Positions 21,143-29,522 of a stretch of 64,000 nucleotides of DNA are shown in pieces. The stretch's first letter is position 1. The number at the start of each line of letters is the position of its first letter. The notes under the pieces were generated by a model. That model did no database searches, was not told the DNA's origin, and saw only the letters and a list, made by a program, of their open reading frames with translations. This stretch comes from Terriglobia bacterium (GTDB taxonomy: Bacteria; Acidobacteriota; Terriglobia; 20CM-2-55-15), in contig CBDAOY010000008.1 in assembly GCA_965198225.1 (NCBI GenBank), positions 960,001-1,024,000 on the forward strand, given 5' to 3'. The position numbers and the translations under genes were made by a program.

Positions 21143-21844
21143 CTACAGTCCGGTGGCGAAGTCCAGGGCGATCCGGGGAGCATCCGGGTTGTCTTCGTGC
21201 TTGATGAAGGCGTAGACATCGATTCCGTCCGACACCCAACCCCGCAGCCGCTCCTGCCATTCTTCTCGCTCCGCTTCGGAGTAATTCGACTTCCGCAAGC
21301 GCACGTAGGTCTTGTTCGAGGTGAGGCGCAGGGGCGTCGTGTGTTCGTCGGCGTCGTGGATGCACAGGGCCGCCTTGTACCGCTCGAGCAGGGAATAGAC
21401 GTCGTCGGTGAACCAGGACTCGTTCCGAAACTCAAACGCACAAGCCATACTCGAAGGCAGTCCGGAGAGAAACATCTCCAGCCGCTCGAGGTCGCACTTG
21501 AAATTGGGTGGAAGCTGGTAGAGCAGGATGCCGAACCGATCCTCCAGCTGGGGAAGGGTATCGAGCAGGTAATCGAGAGCCTCCGACGGCACCCGCAGGC
21601 GCTCCCAGTGCGTAATCTTCCGTGACGCTTTCATCGCGAAGCGAAAATCCGGATGGGTCTTCTCCTTCCAGCCATCCAGGGTCTTCCGGGTCGGCATGCG
21701 GTAGAAGGTGTAGTCGATTTCAACCGCATCGAACTTCGAGGCGTAATAGTTCAGGAAGTTCTTCTGCGGGATATCTTTCGGGTAGAAAGACGGTTTCCAT
21801 TCTTTGTAACTGAAGCCCGATGTTCCCAGCCAGACCTTCGCCAT
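21143..21844 (-). CDS. DUF72 family protein
   Basis: GTSGFSYKEW...FYP, VEIDYTFY, QLPP and EFRNESW motifs; start MAKVW at 21844. Confidence 0.92.
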   Translation of the reverse strand: MAKVWLGTSGFSYKEWKPSFYPKDIPQKNFLNYYASKFDAVEIDYTFYRMPTRKTLDGWKEKTHPDFRFAMKASRKITHWERLRVPSEALDYLLDTLPQLEDRFGILLYQLPPNFKCDLERLEMFLSGLPSSMACAFEFRNESWFTDDVYSLLERYKAALCIHDADEHTTPLRLTSNKTYVRLRKSNYSEAEREEWQERLRGWVSDGIDVYAFIKHEDNPDAPRIALDFATGL

Positions 21845-21921
21845 CGCGTGCTCGTGACCCCCTTTTCTTGCAACCGGCGATTTCTTTGGGGGATGATACG
21901 CGATCAGCGAAGGGGGACACA

Positions 21922-23511
21922 ATGAAGCGCTTCTGTCTGGTTCTGGTCGTGATCTCGGTTCTGAGTCTGAATGCGGGGGCGCAGGAGGACTTCGACATCG
22001 TCATCCGCGGCGGCCGCGTCGTCGACGGTTCCGGTAACCCGTGGATCCGAGCCGATGTCGGAATTCGCGACGATCGTATCGTGCGCATCGGCGATTTGCG
22101 GCAAGCCACCGCGGAACGATTCATCGAGGCCGACGGCCTGGTCGTCGCTCCGGGCTTCATCGATCCTCACACCCATGCCGTCCGCGGGATCTTCGATGTT
22201 CCCACTGCCGACAGCGCGCTCCTGCAGGGTGTGACAACGTTGATCGAGGGTAACGACGGCAGCTCGCCATACCCGATCGCGGATCATCTCGAGCGCATAC
22301 AGACGGGCGGAATCAGCACGAACTGGGCGCTGTTCGTCGGGCAGGGAACCGTTCGATCTCAGGTCATCGGCGCGGAGGACCGTGCGGCCACGCCTGAGGA
22401 AATGGATCAGATGAAACGGCTGGTTGCCGACGCGATGGAGCAAGGGGCCCTCGGCATCTCGACCGGTCTTTTCTACGTTCCCGGAAGCTTCACGTCCACA
22501 GAAGAAGTCATCGCGCTCTCGAAGGAGGCCGCCCGCTACAAGGGTATGTACATCTCCCACATGCGCGACGAGGTGTCCGGACTGCTCGACTCGGTTCGGG
22601 AAACGATCCGAATCGGGGAAGAGGCCGGTCTACCCGTCCAGATGACCCACCACAAGGTCGTCGGCAAGGATATGTGGGGCGCCAGCGTCGATTCGCTCAG
22701 ACTGGTGGACGAAGCCCGGGCGCGCGGCGTCGACATCACGATGGATCAATACCCGTACACAGCCTCACAGACTGGAATCACGGCGCTCGTGCCGCAGTGG
22801 GCGCAGGAGGGCGGAACCGAGAGGCTGATCGAACGGCTGCAGGATCCGACGACGCGTGAGGATGTTCGTTCCGGGATCGTCGATCGCATTCTCCACGACC
22901 GGGGCGGTGGTGACCCGAAGAATGTCTTCATCTCCTCCTGCACCTGGGACAGATCGTTGGAAGGGAAGAACCTGGCCGAGATCACCACCGCGCGCGGTAT
23001 GGAACCCACACCCGACAATGCCGCTGTAGTCGTGATGGACCTCATAACCGGCGGGGGCGCACGCGCTGTCTACCACGCCATGTCGGAAGAGGACGTCGAG
23101 CGCATCATGCAGCACCCCGCCACGGCCATTGGGTCCGACGGCCCCCTGTCGGTTTTCGGCGAGGGCACTCCACATCCGCGCCAGTACGGAACGTTTGCAC
23201 GGGTGCTCGGTTACTACGTCCGGGAACGGGGCATACTGAGACTCGAAGAAGCGGTCCGGAAGATGACCAGCGCCACGGCTCAACGGCTGGGGATTCGAGA
23301 TCGTGGTCTGCTGCGCGAGGGATACCTCGCCGACGTGACTATCTTCGATGCCGAGGAGATCCGCGACACGGCGACTTTCGAGGAACCCCACCAGTACGCC
23401 GTTGGCGTTCGTTTCGTTATCGTCAATGGGGAAGTCGTCGTAGCGGGGGGGCAGCACACCGGCCTTCGTCCCGGCCGGGTTATTCACGGCCCCGGCTTCT
23501 CGGGAAACTGA
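21922..23511 (+). CDS. N-acyl-D-amino-acid deacylase (D-aminoacylase family amidohydrolase), signal peptide
   Basis: PGFIDPHTH, GISTGLFY, SHMRDE, DQYPY and HPRQYGTF motifs. Confidence 0.9.
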   Translation: MKRFCLVLVVISVLSLNAGAQEDFDIVIRGGRVVDGSGNPWIRADVGIRDDRIVRIGDLRQATAERFIEADGLVVAPGFIDPHTHAVRGIFDVPTADSALLQGVTTLIEGNDGSSPYPIADHLERIQTGGISTNWALFVGQGTVRSQVIGAEDRAATPEEMDQMKRLVADAMEQGALGISTGLFYVPGSFTSTEEVIALSKEAARYKGMYISHMRDEVSGLLDSVRETIRIGEEAGLPVQMTHHKVVGKDMWGASVDSLRLVDEARARGVDITMDQYPYTASQTGITALVPQWAQEGGTERLIERLQDPTTREDVRSGIVDRILHDRGGGDPKNVFISSCTWDRSLEGKNLAEITTARGMEPTPDNAAVVVMDLITGGGARAVYHAMSEEDVERIMQHPATAIGSDGPLSVFGEGTPHPRQYGTFARVLGYYVRERGILRLEEAVRKMTSATAQRLGIRDRGLLREGYLADVTIFDAEEIRDTATFEEPHQYAVGVRFVIVNGEVVVAGGQHTGLRPGRVIHGPGFSGN

Positions 23512-24264
23512 CGCCTCAGAACCTTAACTTCTAGTTCGTAATACAACATATAACTCAAAGTATTAAAGTTACTTACTGGCTTAGAAACAGGCTGCACCGA
23601 TCATTCCTGCCGCAGAATTCTGACCTCGCCGCCAACACACCCTTCGCGCTGAGCTCGGCGTTTTCGTCCGGACCGCCTGAAACCTCGTCTGCACGGCGTT
23701 TCCGGGCCGGGACCCCTACGAAAGGCCCACCCAACGGCACAGTAGGCGCGGCACCTCGCTCTGGAAGCCTATGCTCAAGGGTTTCTGCCGGCAGATCAGC
23801 TGAACCTCAATAAAGACGGGTTTCGGAACGTCTACAACACACGAAACCGGCTTTAATATTGGCCGAAAACACCCCCGACTTTTCAACAAGACACCAACCG
23901 ACCGCATTCGGCGCAAAACGCTACGAACGAGCGTTTTATTGCCACTTAGCCTTGAAAGTCAGACCTTTTCCACACCCTTTTCCACAAGTGCTGTGGAGAG
24001 AACCCTTTTCCAGCACCGCCACCACTGATGTCCGCTTCACACCGAGCCGCTTTTTCCTCCATCCTGGCGTCCGCTTGGGCCACACCTGACACCGAGAAAC
24101 CAAGCCATCGGTCGAAGTTTCCGCCAAAAGCCTAGAGAAAAAGCCCGCCCGTTACTGCCGGGCCTCCCTGACACATAGATCCAATCCACGGTCATGAAGT
24201 ATCACGATCGAGGGGTATTACGGAGAACCAAGCTTTCGGTGAAGTTCCCGCGCCAACGAAGAAG

Positions 24265-24375
24265 AATATTATGTCAAGTAAAGCCCGCCCGTTACGTCTG
24301 GGCGAGCGTGACCGTGGATCAAGCTCTCGCTGATAGAGTAGCGCATTGTCCAGGGGCTTTACTTGACATAATATT
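24265..24375. repeat. 22-bp perfect inverted repeat containing XerD-arm sequence
   Basis: AATATTATGTCAAGTAAAGCCC (24265-24286) and its exact reverse complement (24354-24375), with a 67-nt spacer. Confidence 0.9.
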
Positions 24376-24388
24376 TCTTATCCGACGT
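24361..24388 (-). other. Putative chromosomal dif site (XerC/XerD recombination site)
   Basis: Minus strand reads ACGTCGGATAA-GAAATA-TTATGTCAAGT: 11-6-11 architecture with ATAA/TTAT inner palindrome and a conserved XerD arm, in an AT-rich intergenic region. Confidence 0.82.
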
Positions 24389-24444
24389 TCTTTCCTAACT
24401 CCACCGCCTTGAACAACCTCCTCCCCCGCGAGATAATGCCCGTG

Positions 24445-25473
24445 ATGACAACGCTCTCCCCCAGCTCCGCCGCTACGGACAGGCTAGGCCGCCTGATACG
24501 TGACCTCCGTATATCGGTCACTGATCGCTGCAACTACCGCTGTAACTACTGCATGCCCTATGACGAGTACGTCTGGATCGAGCGCGAGGCGGTTCTCTCT
24601 TTCGAGGAGATCACCCGCCTGGCACGAGTCTTCATCGACCTGGGAGTCGAGAAGATTCGGCTCACCGGAGGCGAACCACTCGTTCGGAACGGTCTCGAGA
24701 CGCTGATCGCGCAACTGAGGAATCTCCCGGGGTTGAAGGATCTGGCCCTGACGACGAACGGGTCGCTGCTCGCCGAAAAGGCGGAATCGCTGAAGTCTGC
24801 GGGCCTGGGGCGGATCAACGTCAGTCTGGATACACTCCGGGAGGATCGATTTCGAGAGCTGACTCAGCGCGGCGAGTTGAATCATGTCCTCGACGGCGTC
24901 CGGGTCGCGAAGGAGGCCGGTCTGGGGCCTATCAAGATCAACGCCGTGGTCATGAAGGGGTTCAACGACGACGAGATCCTGGACCTCGTGGACTACGGTC
25001 GGGACAACGGCCTGGAGATGCGGTTCATCGAGTTCCTGGATGTCGGTAACGCCAACACCTGGAGCCTGGATCGAACCGTACCCAAAGAACGCATCGTCGA
25101 GATCATCCACTCCCGGCATCCGCTCGAGGAGGTCGGACGGGGCGACGACCGCGCTCCGAGTGTCGATTACCGGTACCTCGACGGCAGCGGCAGGGTCGGC
25201 ATCATCGGCTCGCTGACCGAGCCCTTCTGCGCGCGCTGTACCCGCGCCCGCCTCACCGCCGACGGTCGGCTCGTCACCTGTCTCTTTTCAGAGAGTGGCT
25301 TCGATCTGAAGACGCCGCTCCGGGCCGGCAAGGGCGATGCGGAAATCGGCGAGACGATCCGCTCGCTGTGGGCAGAACGAACCGATCGCTATTCCGATCA
25401 ACGCTGGGAAGCAATCCAGTCGGGGACCTACAAGGCCGGTAAGAAGATCGAGATGATCACGCTGGGCGGTTAG
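24445..25473 (+). CDS. moaA: GTP 3',8-cyclase (molybdenum cofactor biosynthesis)
   Basis: LRISVTDRCNYRCNYC, LTGGEP, CARCTRARLTADG...CL and C-terminal GG; start uncertain. Confidence 0.96.
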   Translation: MTTLSPSSAATDRLGRLIRDLRISVTDRCNYRCNYCMPYDEYVWIEREAVLSFEEITRLARVFIDLGVEKIRLTGGEPLVRNGLETLIAQLRNLPGLKDLALTTNGSLLAEKAESLKSAGLGRINVSLDTLREDRFRELTQRGELNHVLDGVRVAKEAGLGPIKINAVVMKGFNDDEILDLVDYGRDNGLEMRFIEFLDVGNANTWSLDRTVPKERIVEIIHSRHPLEEVGRGDDRAPSVDYRYLDGSGRVGIIGSLTEPFCARCTRARLTADGRLVTCLFSESGFDLKTPLRAGKGDAEIGETIRSLWAERTDRYSDQRWEAIQSGTYKAGKKIEMITLGG

Positions 25474-25549: not shown

Positions 25550-27544
25550 ATGCGCTTTACGCTTTGCTTGTGCGCGCTGATGCTGTGTTGCGCGATTCCC
25601 GTCGATGCCCAGGACGAAGCTCCGACACCTCCAGGGCCAAAGCCCGAGCGTGTCGACGTCTCTCCACGCCGGACTGAAATCGAGGCCGGAGAGAAGTTGC
25701 AATTCACCGCGACAGGCTTCGACGACGAGGGCGAGGCCATGGACGCGAAACCGACGGCATGGTTCGCCATCCCATTCGATCAGGCCGCTGCCGACATGGA
25801 AGGCAACGTGACGTTCTTCCTCCCCGGGAGCGTACGTGTTGGCGCGCTGATCAACGGTCAGACCGGGTTTGCGACTATCACGGTCTCGCCCCAGGCCGTG
25901 TCGCAGCTCGAGATCTCTTCAACCGAAGGCCCGATAGCAGCCGGAACAGGAATTCTCCTGACGGCGACGGCCCGGACCTCCAACGGAGATCCCCGCACCG
26001 ATGTTCAGATCGAATGGACCTCCGAGTCTCCGGAGATCGCTCGCGTCGATGCCGCCGGGTTCGTCGTCGGCATCGCGCCGGGTCGGGCCGTGCTTCGGGC
26101 CAGCGCGGGAACCGCCAACACGTCCCTCAGCGTCGATGTGATCCCGAACCCGGTCGACGTCCTCAGCGTGACGCCGGCGACGGCCGGGGCCAGGACCGGC
26201 GACGTCATCCGTTTCAGCGCTGCTGCGTTGGACTCCGATGGTCAAACCCTGGAGGCGCCCGTGGTGCGCTGGGCTGTTACGGGCATCGGGGCGATGATCG
26301 AATCCGACGGCGGATTCGTAGCCGAGCGGCCCGGCTCCTATGTCGTCAATGCGACCAGCGGCAACAGGACCGCGGTGGCCACCGTCACGGTGTCTCCCCG
26401 CTTCGCGGAGCGCGAACTGGAGATCGTCGGCCAGACCGAACAGGAGGAATTCCAGAGCGCGGAGCAATGGATCATCGGGAACCACGCGTACCTGTCGTCG
26501 ATGATGGCGGGCAAGTTGTGGGTCTACGACGTTTCGAATCCCGGAAACCCGCTCAAAGTCGATTCCGTTTCCTTCGACGCCCGTGTCATCAACGATGTCA
26601 GTACGACACCCGACGGCAAGATCGGCGTGATCACGCGCGAGGGCGCTTCGGACCGCAAGAACGGAATAGTGTTTCTGGACCTGGATGAACCGGCGCACCC
26701 GGAGGTGCTGTCGGAATACACGGAGACGGTGACGGGTGGGGTTCACAGCGCCTACATCGACGATCACTACGTCTACCTGACCGACGATGCGACCGGTTCC
26801 CTCCGCGTCATCGATTTCGGGGATGCCGGGAATCCGAAGGAAGTAGCACGGTGGGAAGTCGAGAACCCGCTGGTGACGACGATCGAAACGCCGGTCGGCG
26901 AGATGATGGGCGGTCGCATGCTGCACGACGTCCAGGTCGTCGACGGCCTGATATACATGGGCTACTGGCGCGACGGTCTGGTCATCCTCGATGTAGGCGC
27001 AGGCATCGCGGGCGGCAGCCCGGAGAAACCTGAATTCGTGAGCCAGCTCCGTTTCAACTACAACGAGCTCTACGGTCCGGATTGGCTCGCTGGTGCACAC
27101 TCGGTGTTTCGTTACAACGACTATGTCTTCCTCGGTGACGAGGTGTTCCCCGCCCAGTTCAGCCTCAGCTCGAAAGACCGTATTCCGGTCAAAGGCGTGG
27201 TTCACGTCGTCGACGTGTCCGACATCCGAAACCCGCGGAAGGTTGCCGAGTACGCCGTTCCGGAAGCGGGAGCCCACAACATGTGGGTCGAGAACGACGT
27301 GATGTACATGGGTTACTACAACGGAGGCGGAAGAGTCGTGGATGTGTCGGGCGAACTGCGTGGAAACCTCTACCGCCAGGGCCGGGAGATGGCACGTCTG
27401 TGGACGGGTAGCCCGGACGGGTATCGGCCGAACCTGCCTTTCGCCTGGGGCGCCCAGCCTCACAACGGACTGATCTACTTCAACGACACCAACACGGGGA
27501 TCTGGGTCACACGGATCGTCGACCCGCGCGACCGGGAGCCGTAG
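25550..27544 (+). CDS. Secreted Ig-like (Big_2) plus LVIVD-repeat protein
   Basis: Signal peptide, three Ig-like repeats (WTSESPEIARVD), then LVIVD-type repeats (LVILDV, VVDVSD). Confidence 0.82.
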   Translation: MRFTLCLCALMLCCAIPVDAQDEAPTPPGPKPERVDVSPRRTEIEAGEKLQFTATGFDDEGEAMDAKPTAWFAIPFDQAAADMEGNVTFFLPGSVRVGALINGQTGFATITVSPQAVSQLEISSTEGPIAAGTGILLTATARTSNGDPRTDVQIEWTSESPEIARVDAAGFVVGIAPGRAVLRASAGTANTSLSVDVIPNPVDVLSVTPATAGARTGDVIRFSAAALDSDGQTLEAPVVRWAVTGIGAMIESDGGFVAERPGSYVVNATSGNRTAVATVTVSPRFAERELEIVGQTEQEEFQSAEQWIIGNHAYLSSMMAGKLWVYDVSNPGNPLKVDSVSFDARVINDVSTTPDGKIGVITREGASDRKNGIVFLDLDEPAHPEVLSEYTETVTGGVHSAYIDDHYVYLTDDATGSLRVIDFGDAGNPKEVARWEVENPLVTTIETPVGEMMGGRMLHDVQVVDGLIYMGYWRDGLVILDVGAGIAGGSPEKPEFVSQLRFNYNELYGPDWLAGAHSVFRYNDYVFLGDEVFPAQFSLSSKDRIPVKGVVHVVDVSDIRNPRKVAEYAVPEAGAHNMWVENDVMYMGYYNGGGRVVDVSGELRGNLYRQGREMARLWTGSPDGYRPNLPFAWGAQPHNGLIYFNDTNTGIWVTRIVDPRDREP

Positions 27545-27579
27545 CGCTTGAACGCTGATGGCTGATTGCCTACCCGGGC

Positions 27580-28719
27580 TCAGCGCCTCCGGTTGGCGCC
27601 TCTGCTGCTGCGGATGTCGATGCCCCCCGCCTGTTGGCCGACATCGGCGCTGGCCACGATCTCCAGTCTCTTCAGGTCGAGCACTTCTACCGAGCCCGGC
27701 TCGGAGCTGACTCCTTCGACCGACACGAAAGCATAGTGTTCGTCTTCTGAAATCGCGACGCCGTGGACAACGCGCCGCCCGGTTGCGATGCGAGCGACTT
27801 CCGTTCCCGACTCGATCTCGTAGACAGAGATCGATTGATCCCTCTTGTTTGTGGCAACAAGCAGCTCATCGGTCACGGCCAGGTTGTAGACACCGGCACG
27901 CGCTTCCAGACGACGACTCAATTCCCAGGTCTCCACGTCGACTTCGACGATCTCGTCCGATGCGTTGCATGCGACGAAAACAAAGCGCCCGTCCTTAGAT
28001 GGCTCGGCTCACGTGGGCGAGCATCGTTCCGACGATGCGGAGGCGTTCGGCATCTCCGGAGACATGCGTCCCATCATTTCTGCGCTCTCGACGGGTCCTC
28101 TAAATCCTTTTTCGCCGCCTCTCGTCAACATGAAGTTTCTCGACACACGAAGCGTGCTGGTGTCGATCTCTACGAGCCTGTCGTCCATCATGCATGTGGA
28201 GTAGTGCAGCGTGCCCTGCGGGTTGATCCTCGAGCCGTGTGGCATCTTGCAGGTCGTGATCCGAACGATCTCCAGCATCTCGTCGGTCATCACGACCGAC
28301 ACCGACGAGGGAACCATGTCTCCGTGAAGGTTGAAGTTCACGACGTAGAGAAACGTTCCATCCGGAGTCAGGTCGATCGTCGCCGGGAACATTCCCACGG
28401 TGACCCTTCCAACCGCGGTGTCGTCGGTCGCCGAATACTTCCAGACAGTCCCGTACGGCTGGCCGTGCGCGATCGAAACGTAGTAGAAGCGTCCATCTGG
28501 AGACAGGCGTAGCCCGTGCGGGCCGTCGATGTCGAGCGGCATGATTCCGACCGTCACTTCACGATCGACGGCGACGGCATTCCCCTCAAAGCTGAGGACC
28601 GCAATCCGGTCCGCCGCCTCGGCGGCGACGTAGATCTCGTGGACGTTGATCCGAGGCTCTCTTTGCGCAGCCGCGACGTTCGCGAAGAGCAGCAGGCTCA
28701 GGATCAGGCGGGGTAACAT
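27580..28719 (-). pseudogene. YncE/YVTN beta-propeller secreted protein interrupted by an in-frame TGA
   Basis: ORFs 28009-28719 and 27580-27936 share a frame and read CSPT*AEPSKDGRFVFVACN across the TGA at 28009-28011. Confidence 0.75.
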
Positions 28720-28761
28720 GGGGCCATTATATACAGCGATCGGCCCTCAGCGGTTCGCCAA

Positions 28762-28800
28762 GCAAAGAAGGGGCTCGCGGTCGAAACCGCGAGCCCCTTC
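28762..28800 (-). terminator. Strong intrinsic terminator
   Basis: Perfect 15-bp stem GAAGGGGCTCGCGGT with a UUCG loop on the minus strand, followed by TTTGC. Confidence 0.8.
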
Positions 28801-29112
28801 CTGATTCATCCCGAACATCCTCGTGTGAGGCGTGGCGCTGGTTGTTGGCGCAGCAGCATCCGGTGTCGCGGGGCGATCACCCAGCGCTGGAGTCAGGATT
28901 CAGATTGCATCCTGAAAGCGATCGCCGAAAACCACAGTGAGCTCGAACTTGAAGATGACCGAACGCCGATCACACGTCGTGCACCGCAACAGCTCAGAAA
29001 CGAAGTACCAGAGGAAAGGCCGAAACAGGCTCGTCGGGAAGACGTCGCCTCACCTGCCTTTCCATCAGTGTCCCTGAGCGGATATCCGTTCGGGTGCATG
29101 CGAGAGCCGCAA

Positions 29113-29304
29113 TTACTTCTTTTTCTTCTTGGCGGCCTTCTTCTTCGTAGCTTTCTTCTTAGCTGCTTTTTTCTTAGTTGCTTTCTTCTTAGTTGCTTTC
29201 TTCTTGGTCGCTTTCTTCTTGGTTGCTTTCTTCTTAGCAGCCTTCTTCTTGGTTGCTTTCTTCTTAGCAGCCTTCTTCTTGGGCGCTTTCTTCTTGGTTG
29301 CCAT
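29113..29304 (-). CDS. Histone H1-like basic nucleoid protein (KKKAT/KKKAA repeats)
   Basis: AGGAG RBS, then MATKKKAPKKKAAKKKATKKK...; 15-bp tandem repeats; 63 aa. Confidence 0.85.
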   Translation of the reverse strand: MATKKKAPKKKAAKKKATKKKAAKKKATKKKATKKKATKKKATKKKAAKKKATKKKAAKKKKK

Positions 29305-29522
29305 AAGTGAAGTTTCTCCTTTTTCTCTTGTTGATTCATGCACGCTTCAAAACAACAAGCGTGCGTGAACAGTACTTAACTACAATCGCGAGGTGTTTTT
29401 CCAGTCTAGATTTCAACCAACACCCAACACGACAGCTTATTATTCTTGTCGGATTTCCCAGATCAGGTCCCTCCACCGCCGTATTAATTGCGTTAATTCG
29501 GACGCTGACGTAAGTTCTTCTC

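Follow-up and report, generated by a model that had tools for sequence, protein, structure and literature searches.

The window analyzed here is a stretch of 64,000 nucleotides on contig C8 (C8:960001-1024000) of a soil Terriglobia genome (G000) of 6.4 Mb and 60% G+C, which is assembled in 9 contigs and is 97% complete. Within it, a gap of about 900 bp extends from an amidohydrolase gene (21820-23511, plus strand), a left neighbor conserved within the genus, to moaA (24409-25473, plus strand), which encodes radical SAM and Mob_synth_C domains. The gap contains a dif site close to moaA and, 81 nt away, an inverted copy of the XerD half of that site, with which it can form a hairpin. Further to the left, a pair of DnaA-box-like 9-mers was observed (23964-23998), in which TTTTCCACA occurs twice, 12 nt apart, together with an inverted third copy. 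Between this pair and dif lies DNA specific to G000 (24098-24312, plus strand), composed of the direct repeats A (24098-24172) and B (24226-24312), the second of which holds the inverted half-site; a repeat search also returned an 11-nt inverted pair in this region (24184-24194 and 24309-24319). Inside repeat A, a terminator-like hairpin with a T-run was found on the minus strand (24147-24163), a number within chance (1 found against a shuffle mean of 1.3), and a weaker terminator-like copy is present in repeat B, beside the inverted arm. To the right of moaA, a second G000-specific block of about 4 kb (25.5-29.5 kb) matched only Ig-domain and beta-propeller families.

The dif site occupies positions 24361-24388 on the minus strand and consists of the XerC arm ACGTCGGATAA (24378-24388), the central region GAAATA (24372-24377) and the XerD arm TTATGTCAAGT (24361-24371). 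This 11-6-11 architecture, in which 11-bp arms enclose a 6-bp spacer, fits the lineage consensus obtained from aligned family sites. Seventeen such sites in relatives, found with an XerD-half pattern, share the layout A[CT]GTCGCATAA / TGnnTA / TTATGTCAA[CG]T, and the matrix built from them scored the site in the window at 39.6 bits, against 19.4 bits for the runner-up genome-wide. Across the 9 contigs of this 97% complete genome, the 28-mer has no further match at up to 7 mismatches, and a search for it in exact form among JGI metagenome contigs returned 0 occurrences. Along C8, cumulative GC skew forms a plateau between 880 and 980 kb and declines after about 985 kb, which places dif, at 984.4 kb, on the right edge of the plateau (the maximum). 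The separation of dnaA from dif amounts to 3.33 of 6.41 Mb in one complete congener and 3.31 of 6.24 Mb in the other, or 0.52 and 0.53 of the chromosome. A scan for KOPS-like 8-mers returned no clearly skewed word, the best |z| being 5.3 among tens of thousands of words.

The genome encodes XerD (C8:1043192-1044037), whose TIGR02225 match of 372 bits exceeds the curated cut-off. A further Xer-like gene on contig C6 (TIGR02225, 309.8 bits) is presumed to be XerC. The site resembles described chromosomal dif/XerCD systems in its 11-6-11 layout, its conserved inner ATAA...TTAT, the stronger conservation of the XerD arm relative to the XerC arm, its single-copy and intergenic nature, its position at the skew switch and opposite dnaA, and the presence of both recombinase genes. 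The full dif-like 28-mer of the original prediction, for which uniqueness in the genome and a switch in cumulative GC skew had been named as checks, is borne out by these results: positions 24361-24388 are the genuine and sole dif of the genome, at the terminus. Since dif was predicted earlier in 3 of 3 Acidobacteria (PMC3025954, Table 1), the site itself is of a known kind. Its difference from known chromosomal dif sites is the additional inverted XerD half-site at a distance of 81 nt.

A second difference concerns the surroundings. In three congeners (G001-G003), dif is enclosed by the same pair of genes, immediately upstream of moaA and with its orientation unchanged; in G000 it is 20-50 nt upstream of moaA. 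The gene moaA, the conserved neighbor on the XerC side, adjoins dif in 7 of the 8 other family loci tested as well as in the three congeners, and it is not adjacent to dif in genus g13. The DnaA-box-like pair is kept in 17 of 20 family dif loci and marks the ancestral neighbor on the XerD side. The family's dif thus has a fixed environment, with moaA on one side and the pair on the other, whereas excerpts from PMC2731167 describe the dif of Proteobacteria as being without a specific genetic environment. A module made up of moaA, dif and the DnaA-box-like pair is unexpected for a terminus site. The distance between dif and the pair is 374 nt in G000 and 91-112 nt in the congeners, and the extra DNA, about 280 nt, is a mosaic of local repeats in direct and inverted orientation. 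The spacer on the XerD side is not alignable with the congeners, and not even between G002 and G001, which leaves the insertion point without a definable position.

The inverted copy was delimited by a repeat search and by folding. The left arm (24265-24286, AATATTATGTCAAGTAAAGCCC) and the right arm (24354-24375) are 22 nt long, 100% complementary and separated by a loop of 67 nt (24287-24353). The right arm lies over the XerD side of dif, and the repeat is thus composed of three parts: 4 spacer nt from the central region, all 11 nt of the XerD arm, and 7 nt of outer flank (AAAGCCC). When the copy is read as a complete site in the plus-strand frame 24252-24279, agreement with dif is confined to the XerD arm (24269-24279) and to AATA, the final four spacer bases. 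At the position of the XerC arm (24252-24262), GCCAACGAAGA does not match: ungapped, it shares 4 of 11 positions with the genuine XerC arm, which is chance level, and 6 of 11 by hand count when a 1-nt gap is allowed in the A-run of the spacer. The whole 28-nt frame scores 5.6 bits, entirely derived from the XerD arm, against 39.6 bits for dif. The copying of the XerD arm and part of the spacer proposed in the original prediction is exact, the arm plus 4 nt, whereas the degenerate XerC arm proposed with it dissolves into chance similarity. On sequence grounds the inverted partner is an XerD half-site only, not a second dif, and because it has no XerC arm it would have no capacity as a recombination site on its own.

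The sequence of the repeat arms occurs at one other place in the genome, namely in the partner arm, while the 495 perfect inverted repeats with arms of at least 14 bp in this genome belong mostly to multi-copy families. As single-stranded DNA, the 137-nt stretch folds at -32.4 kcal/mol, compared with -14.8 +/- 2.7 for 200 shuffles (z -6.4, 0/200 as stable), and the proposed perfect 22-bp stem is therefore thermodynamically real. The three small hairpins described in the loop are part of the minimum-energy structure obtained for the loop by itself, but this structure, at -10.6, is no stabler than shuffled sequence (-8.65 +/- 2.1, z -0.92, 41/200 as good).

The layout recurs in other genomes. 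Facing XerD arms 10-120 nt apart were identified in 5 of 400 genomes of the class, including G000, with 0 matches for a reversed-pattern control, and a rescan anchored on ATAA-N6 with gaps of 0-200 returned the same five. The sample of 400 other genomes of the phylum gave 0 cases, with 1 match for the control. The four further genomes of the class are G020, from another genus of the same family, and three species of genus g13, which belongs to another family. G020 shares 4 spacer nt, the arm and 9-10 nt of flank, with one mismatch. Genus g13 displays the layout in 3 of 14 species, with the arm plus 5 nt and a 33-nt loop; in these three, two further inverted arms follow the repeat in tandem units of 85-91 nt, and the repeat DNA is confined to the dif locus in each genome. 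A sixth genome is G012, a congener of G020, where the half-site lies 545 nt from dif because a degenerate IS200/IS605-like element splits the loop. Outside the class, single contigs of like build were observed: L307 (4+11+10), L277 (4+11+7, a 22-bp inverted repeat accompanied by six direct dif-like sites in 750 nt), L304 (3+11+4) and L289, together with L284, in which inverted arms form a tandem array.

The copies are one-sided. A scan of 32 dif loci, covering about 1.4 kb on each side and allowing up to 1 mismatch, found an inverted XerD arm on the XerD side in 6 of 32, a count that includes g13 loci chosen for having matches, while the remaining seven ways of combining arm, orientation and side were each represented in 0 of 32. 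Of the 21 home-family loci, for whose retrieval only the dif pattern had been used, 3 carry the copy. The shared part of the spacer measures 4 nt in G000, G020, L277, L307 and L289 and 3 nt in L304, and never exceeds 4 nt. In g13, the spacer base adjacent to the arm is A in dif and G in the copies, so a 4-nt rule is not universal. Identity extends 7-10 nt into the non-dif flank in G000, G020, L307 and L277.

In two lineages, the half-site differs in conservation from the DNA around it. Between G012 and G020, the arm plus 4 nt is identical at 15 of 15 positions, against 26/52 and 19/32 in the adjacent DNA. In the three g13 species the 16-nt arms are identical, with loops that agree at 20/34 to 24/35 positions. 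As read from these alignments, the half-site has outlasted the divergence of its surroundings in g10 and g13. These observations point to an inverted half-site that either is made repeatedly by a directional process or is kept by selection. The situation within the home genus is different: G001-G003 have no inverted copy and G000 alone carries it, so there is no evidence of conservation for G000 itself, and the perfect identity of its arms may reflect youth.

We favor, at a probability of roughly 0.4, the reading that the inverted copy is an accessory XerD-only binding site, because the half-site has outlasted its diverging surroundings in g10 and g13. The 28-mer would be the working dif, at which XerC and XerD resolve chromosome dimers at the terminus. 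Its 22-bp partner, made up of the arm, four spacer bases and flank, would supply an extra XerD half-site immediately beyond dif, at the end where XerD is addressed. The potential to form a hairpin would then be a by-product of copying or gene conversion between the arms and not the functional form. The sequences establish which site is dif, how far the copy extends, that it recurs and that other lineages conserve it; binding by XerD, and any influence on SMC, FtsK or recombination, would be predictions of this reading. Several observations count against the accessory site. Within the home genus G000 alone has the copy, the layout is rare (5/400 in the class and 0/400 in the rest of the phylum sample), the g13 copies depart from dif at the spacer base beside the arm, and the g13 loci entered the scan on account of their matches. 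The 7-10 nt of flank identity would not be needed for protein binding and fits copying or selection on the stem.

The closest functional parallel may be the XDS (XerD-specific dif-like sites) of Bacillus subtilis. By definition, an XDS sequence has an intact XerD half and no functional XerC half, a description that the G000 copy would fit as a dif-like sequence at the terminus. In the accounts given in parts of PMC11840125 and PMC11894783, the XDS are XerD-only dif-like sites at the terminus with a non-recombination role. The accessory site would have a role comparable to that of the XDS, which act on SMC complexes at the terminus. The G000 copy differs from the XDS in that it abuts dif, is inverted and shares flank with dif.

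The strongest rival is a young and neutral structural mutation, in which the XerD end of dif and its flank were duplicated locally in inverted orientation by template switching or repair at the terminus; it would be without function, the arms being identical through recency or conversion. Because the G000 copy is specific to the species and identical through the flank, with 7 nt of non-dif sequence included, this rival stays strong, although we consider it somewhat unlikely. The absence of the copy from the three congeners, the patchwork of repeats in the surrounding ~280 nt and the overall rarity of the layout agree with it. AAAGCCC also begins repeat A, where no XerD arm follows, and may have offered microhomology for a template switch. 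The other lineages speak against it: the copies in g10 and g13 persist across species while the neighboring DNA stands at 50-69% identity, all six loci show one side and one orientation with seven alternatives absent, and in independent cases identity ends after the same 4 nt of spacer. A random process should yield other sides, orientations and end points.

The accessory XerD-only site has also to be weighed against a mobile origin, the reading put forward in the original prediction, which took the structure for the footprint of a CTXphi-class filamentous phage or IMEX. The resemblance to CTXphi attP(+) is real in outline, with two inverted dif-related sequences tens of nt apart, a stem formed by one strand and one-sided spacer homology. 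As described in portions of PMC3442271, the attP of the CTX type is built from a pair of inverted sites, both of which provide binding arms for XerC and for XerD and which are paired in the stem, and exchange is carried out by XerC. In contrast, the stem in G000 contains the XerD half only, with no XerC arms to pair, the shared spacer bases are those on the XerD side, and there is no phage genome. Zot (PF05707) gave 0 matches in the genome. A second dif-like site in direct orientation, such as would flank an IMEX of the VGJ, TLC or GGI type, was not found either, the best intergenic score being at most 2.2 bits with the matrix. Two decayed direct copies of dif suspected by eye at 24083 and 24166 were rejected: in a local alignment, dif with its flank scored 18 against 24061-24260, compared with 18.6 +/- 3.2 for shuffles, of which 295/500 were as good. 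The neighboring genes are syntenic housekeeping genes: the order amidohydrolase-dif-moaA is the same in the three congeners, which leaves room for non-coding DNA only, and the ~4-kb block beyond moaA has no phage families except Ig domains. An insert of the CTX-type phage or IMEX kind was accordingly discarded, while the looser alternative in the same prediction, an Xer-related structure at the terminus, is the part that the evidence favors, an exact copy of the XerD half-site lying beside dif.

A foreign origin of the loop or of the extra DNA found no support. Neither gave a match in phage, plasmid and viral-contig collections; the 22-mer occurs in 0 viral contigs, and blastn with 24040-24400 returned no phage or plasmid match. 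Full family-type dif-like sites were nevertheless found in 70 viral contigs, at 17-47 bits and in many cases at contig ends, which suggests that mobile elements using a dif of this type probably exist. When the extra DNA was compared with these 70 viral loci, only dif aligned, over 24-33 nt, and 0 of 73 viral dif-like sites had the XerD arm in inverted orientation at a distance of up to 250 nt, with 1 mismatch allowed. Viral contigs selected for inverted XerD-like arms (39 + 28 loci, 70 instances) are mostly AT-rich and without a full dif. L267 is the only viral locus in which both sites reach at least 20 bits; it is a tailed-phage fragment with terminase genes. In a metagenome scan with at least 119 matches, the 80 loci (86 instances) examined were mainly ends of recombinase-in-trio elements and not chromosomal dif.

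A more modest version of the mobile origin is the scar of a small Xer-dependent module, an IMEX or a miniature D module with inverse dif-like sites, that was inserted at dif and whose outer site has since lost its XerC arm. We regard this as unlikely. The ~280 nt of extra DNA in G000 do lie exactly between dif and the conserved box pair, and the geometry of inverse sites with internal XerD sides is that of the D modules of Acinetobacter, in which inward XerD sites surround a short segment, including some without ORFs (according to sections of PMC13141974). The 70 viral contigs with full sites, L277 with its six direct sites and like-built inverted repeat, and the gapped 6/11 agreement of the outer XerC arm can be cited in its support. 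D modules differ, however, in having two complete XerC/XerD sites as their bounds and in residing on plasmids, whereas here the outer site has no XerC arm, the "module" measures 81 bp and the location is the chromosomal terminus. The lack of a second direct site, the absence of mobile-element genes as judged by Zot and by the families of the ~4-kb block, the unmatched extra DNA and the 0/73 viral sites also argue against it, and a run of 22 perfect positions next to an 11-nt arm with no more than chance agreement is unlike the uniform decay of a formerly complete site.

A regulatory function, as a promoter or sRNA element, appears still less probable than such a scar. The structure could act as a 5' hairpin or terminator for moaA, or as a duplicated promoter whose inverted copy fires leftward into a unit of about 110 nt ending at the terminator-like hairpin (24163-24147). 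The XerD arm with the next base, TGACATAAT, can be read by eye as an extended -10-like motif, dif adjoins moaA in G000 and in most of the family loci, and the minus-strand hairpin does lie downstream of the inverted arm. A consensus scan found no promoter at either arm, however, its sole promoter-like matches being at 24409-24437, and the terminator-like site is no more than chance would provide. No Rfam family matched, the g13 copies read CATAAC without the key final T and are not adjacent to moaA, and the element is not conserved in the congeners.

An assembly artefact, by fold-back or a chimeric join, is very improbable: assemblers can create inverted repeats and one run with the repeat may be the source of the assembly, but contigs from the runs of three studies (X1/X4/X7/X9) cross the repeat collinearly and unbroken with 0-1 differences, which disposes of the fold-back that the original prediction had named as a refutation. 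These contigs, in which rare variants are omitted, contain no joints that would indicate inversion of the loop. None of the runs listed as carrying the sequence is an RNA run. In runs X7 and X9, a relative of about 90% identity was observed with the same dif and 8 nt of flank.

Returning to the accessory XerD-only site, a broader proposal is more tentative than the local one, and we hold it to be doubtful. Some Terriglobia may possess an undescribed Xer accessory element consisting of one or several inverted XerD half-sites, each comprising the arm and at most four spacer bases, placed on the XerD side only and kept amid divergence. Such an element would either hold XerD beside dif, as an XDS-like brake on SMC or FtsK at the very point of dimer resolution, or act as a partner in XerD-only strand exchange. 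The single metagenomic and viral contigs of like build suggest that the same element possibly occurs in other bacteria. In the openly accessible main texts searched, no description of inverted XerD half-sites beside a chromosomal dif was found. The list of predicted dif sites by Kono et al. (PMC3025954, supplement) might hold other cases.

If XerD-only strand exchange does take place, it would mirror the XerC-only reaction of CTXphi. Few sites of bacterial chromosomes are understood as well as dif, which is commonly regarded as a bare 28-mer without accessory DNA. Should the copy be merely a short-lived duplication, its interest would lie in how inverted repeats arise at dif. If it is conserved, a recurring XerD half-site with one side and one orientation would imply a local role for XerD beside dif, possibly in chromosome organization, in the handling of FtsK or in the control of strand exchange.

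In G000, an A+T-rich segment of 62 nt (window 23520-23582) is located immediately 3' of the amidohydrolase stop codon; it was not present in any of the three congeners compared. Within the intergenic region, this segment encloses the sole other frame with a weak likeness to dif (2.2 bits on a matrix built from 17 family dif sites). A block of about 4 kb (window 25550-29500), which separates moaA from the syntenic gene beyond it, was found in G000 and was missing from the congeners; a Big_2/LVIVD protein of 664 aa is encoded there, together with beta-propeller fragments.

Elsewhere in G000, the only further exact copy of the XerD arm was located at 61653-61669 of contig C9. This copy scores 14.5 bits, lacks an XerC arm and is surrounded by a run of GTTAAC-containing repeats. 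Several multi-copy inverted-repeat families were also observed across the whole genome, with perfect arms of 24-30 bp and loops of 16-260 nt, and these look like MITEs or REP elements. In another member of the family, G019, identical dif-like 21-mers occur in direct orientation at positions 83687 and 108044 of contig C6, with 24 kb between them, an arrangement that has the classic signature of a putative dif-integrated element.

In G012, which belongs to another genus of the family, the loop between dif and the inverted XerD half-site is split by a degenerate element, 28-570 nt past the XerD arm of dif (locus L015), labelled IS200/IS605-like from a translated motif judged by eye. Its TnpA-like N-terminus is interrupted by a stop, and G+C-rich hairpins lie on its flanks. 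In three species of g13, a genus of another family (G190, G051 and G185; loci L124, L127 and L134), dif is adjoined at its XerD arm by tandem arrays of 85-91-nt units, every one of which has an inverted XerD arm; on the far side of the arrays lies a non-coding element conserved in the genus.

On the viral-collection contig L267 (5920-6060), two dif-like sites that score 23.6 and 29.2 bits stand in inverted orientation, 81 nt apart, and one of them is close in sequence to the g13 dif. The pair lies a short way upstream of the gene for the small terminase subunit, on a tailed-phage fragment that also encodes the large subunit, ArdA and a methylase. Two other "viral" contigs carry full dif-like sites packed in dense arrays. 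L277 (9598-10350 and 11591-12380) contains six direct sites inside 750 nt and two inverted sites, with hairpin loops of 55 nt and 5 nt, while L154 (6079-7045) contains three direct sites spaced 447-491 nt. These arrays resemble tiny Xer-bounded modules stacked together, here in a setting other than Acinetobacter.

The metagenome scan yielded many loci, among them L280, L299 and L305, with elements of about 3.5 kb, of the recombinase-in-trio type, in which three tyrosine-recombinase genes follow one another. These elements terminate in a palindromic dif-like site, present in inverted copies, with a third arm exactly 60 nt from it. A similar recombinase trio is carried by G000 itself (contig C6, 410926-413614), and a tyrosine-recombinase gene is present in this genome in seven identical copies.

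Across the home family, dif is part of a fixed module. Its XerC side is adjoined by moaA in the three congeners and in 7 of the 8 other family loci tested. On the other side, 17 of 20 loci have one or two DnaA-box-like 9-mers (TGTGGA[AT]AA), often paired with 12 nt between the two, at a distance of 28-125 nt from the XerD arm; in 9 of the 20, a motif resembling TTGTTGAAAAGTCG, which is also conserved, comes next. In G000, the pair occupies window 23964-23998, and this region gave zero family matches in Rfam. The occurrence of DnaA-type boxes next to a terminus site is unexpected.
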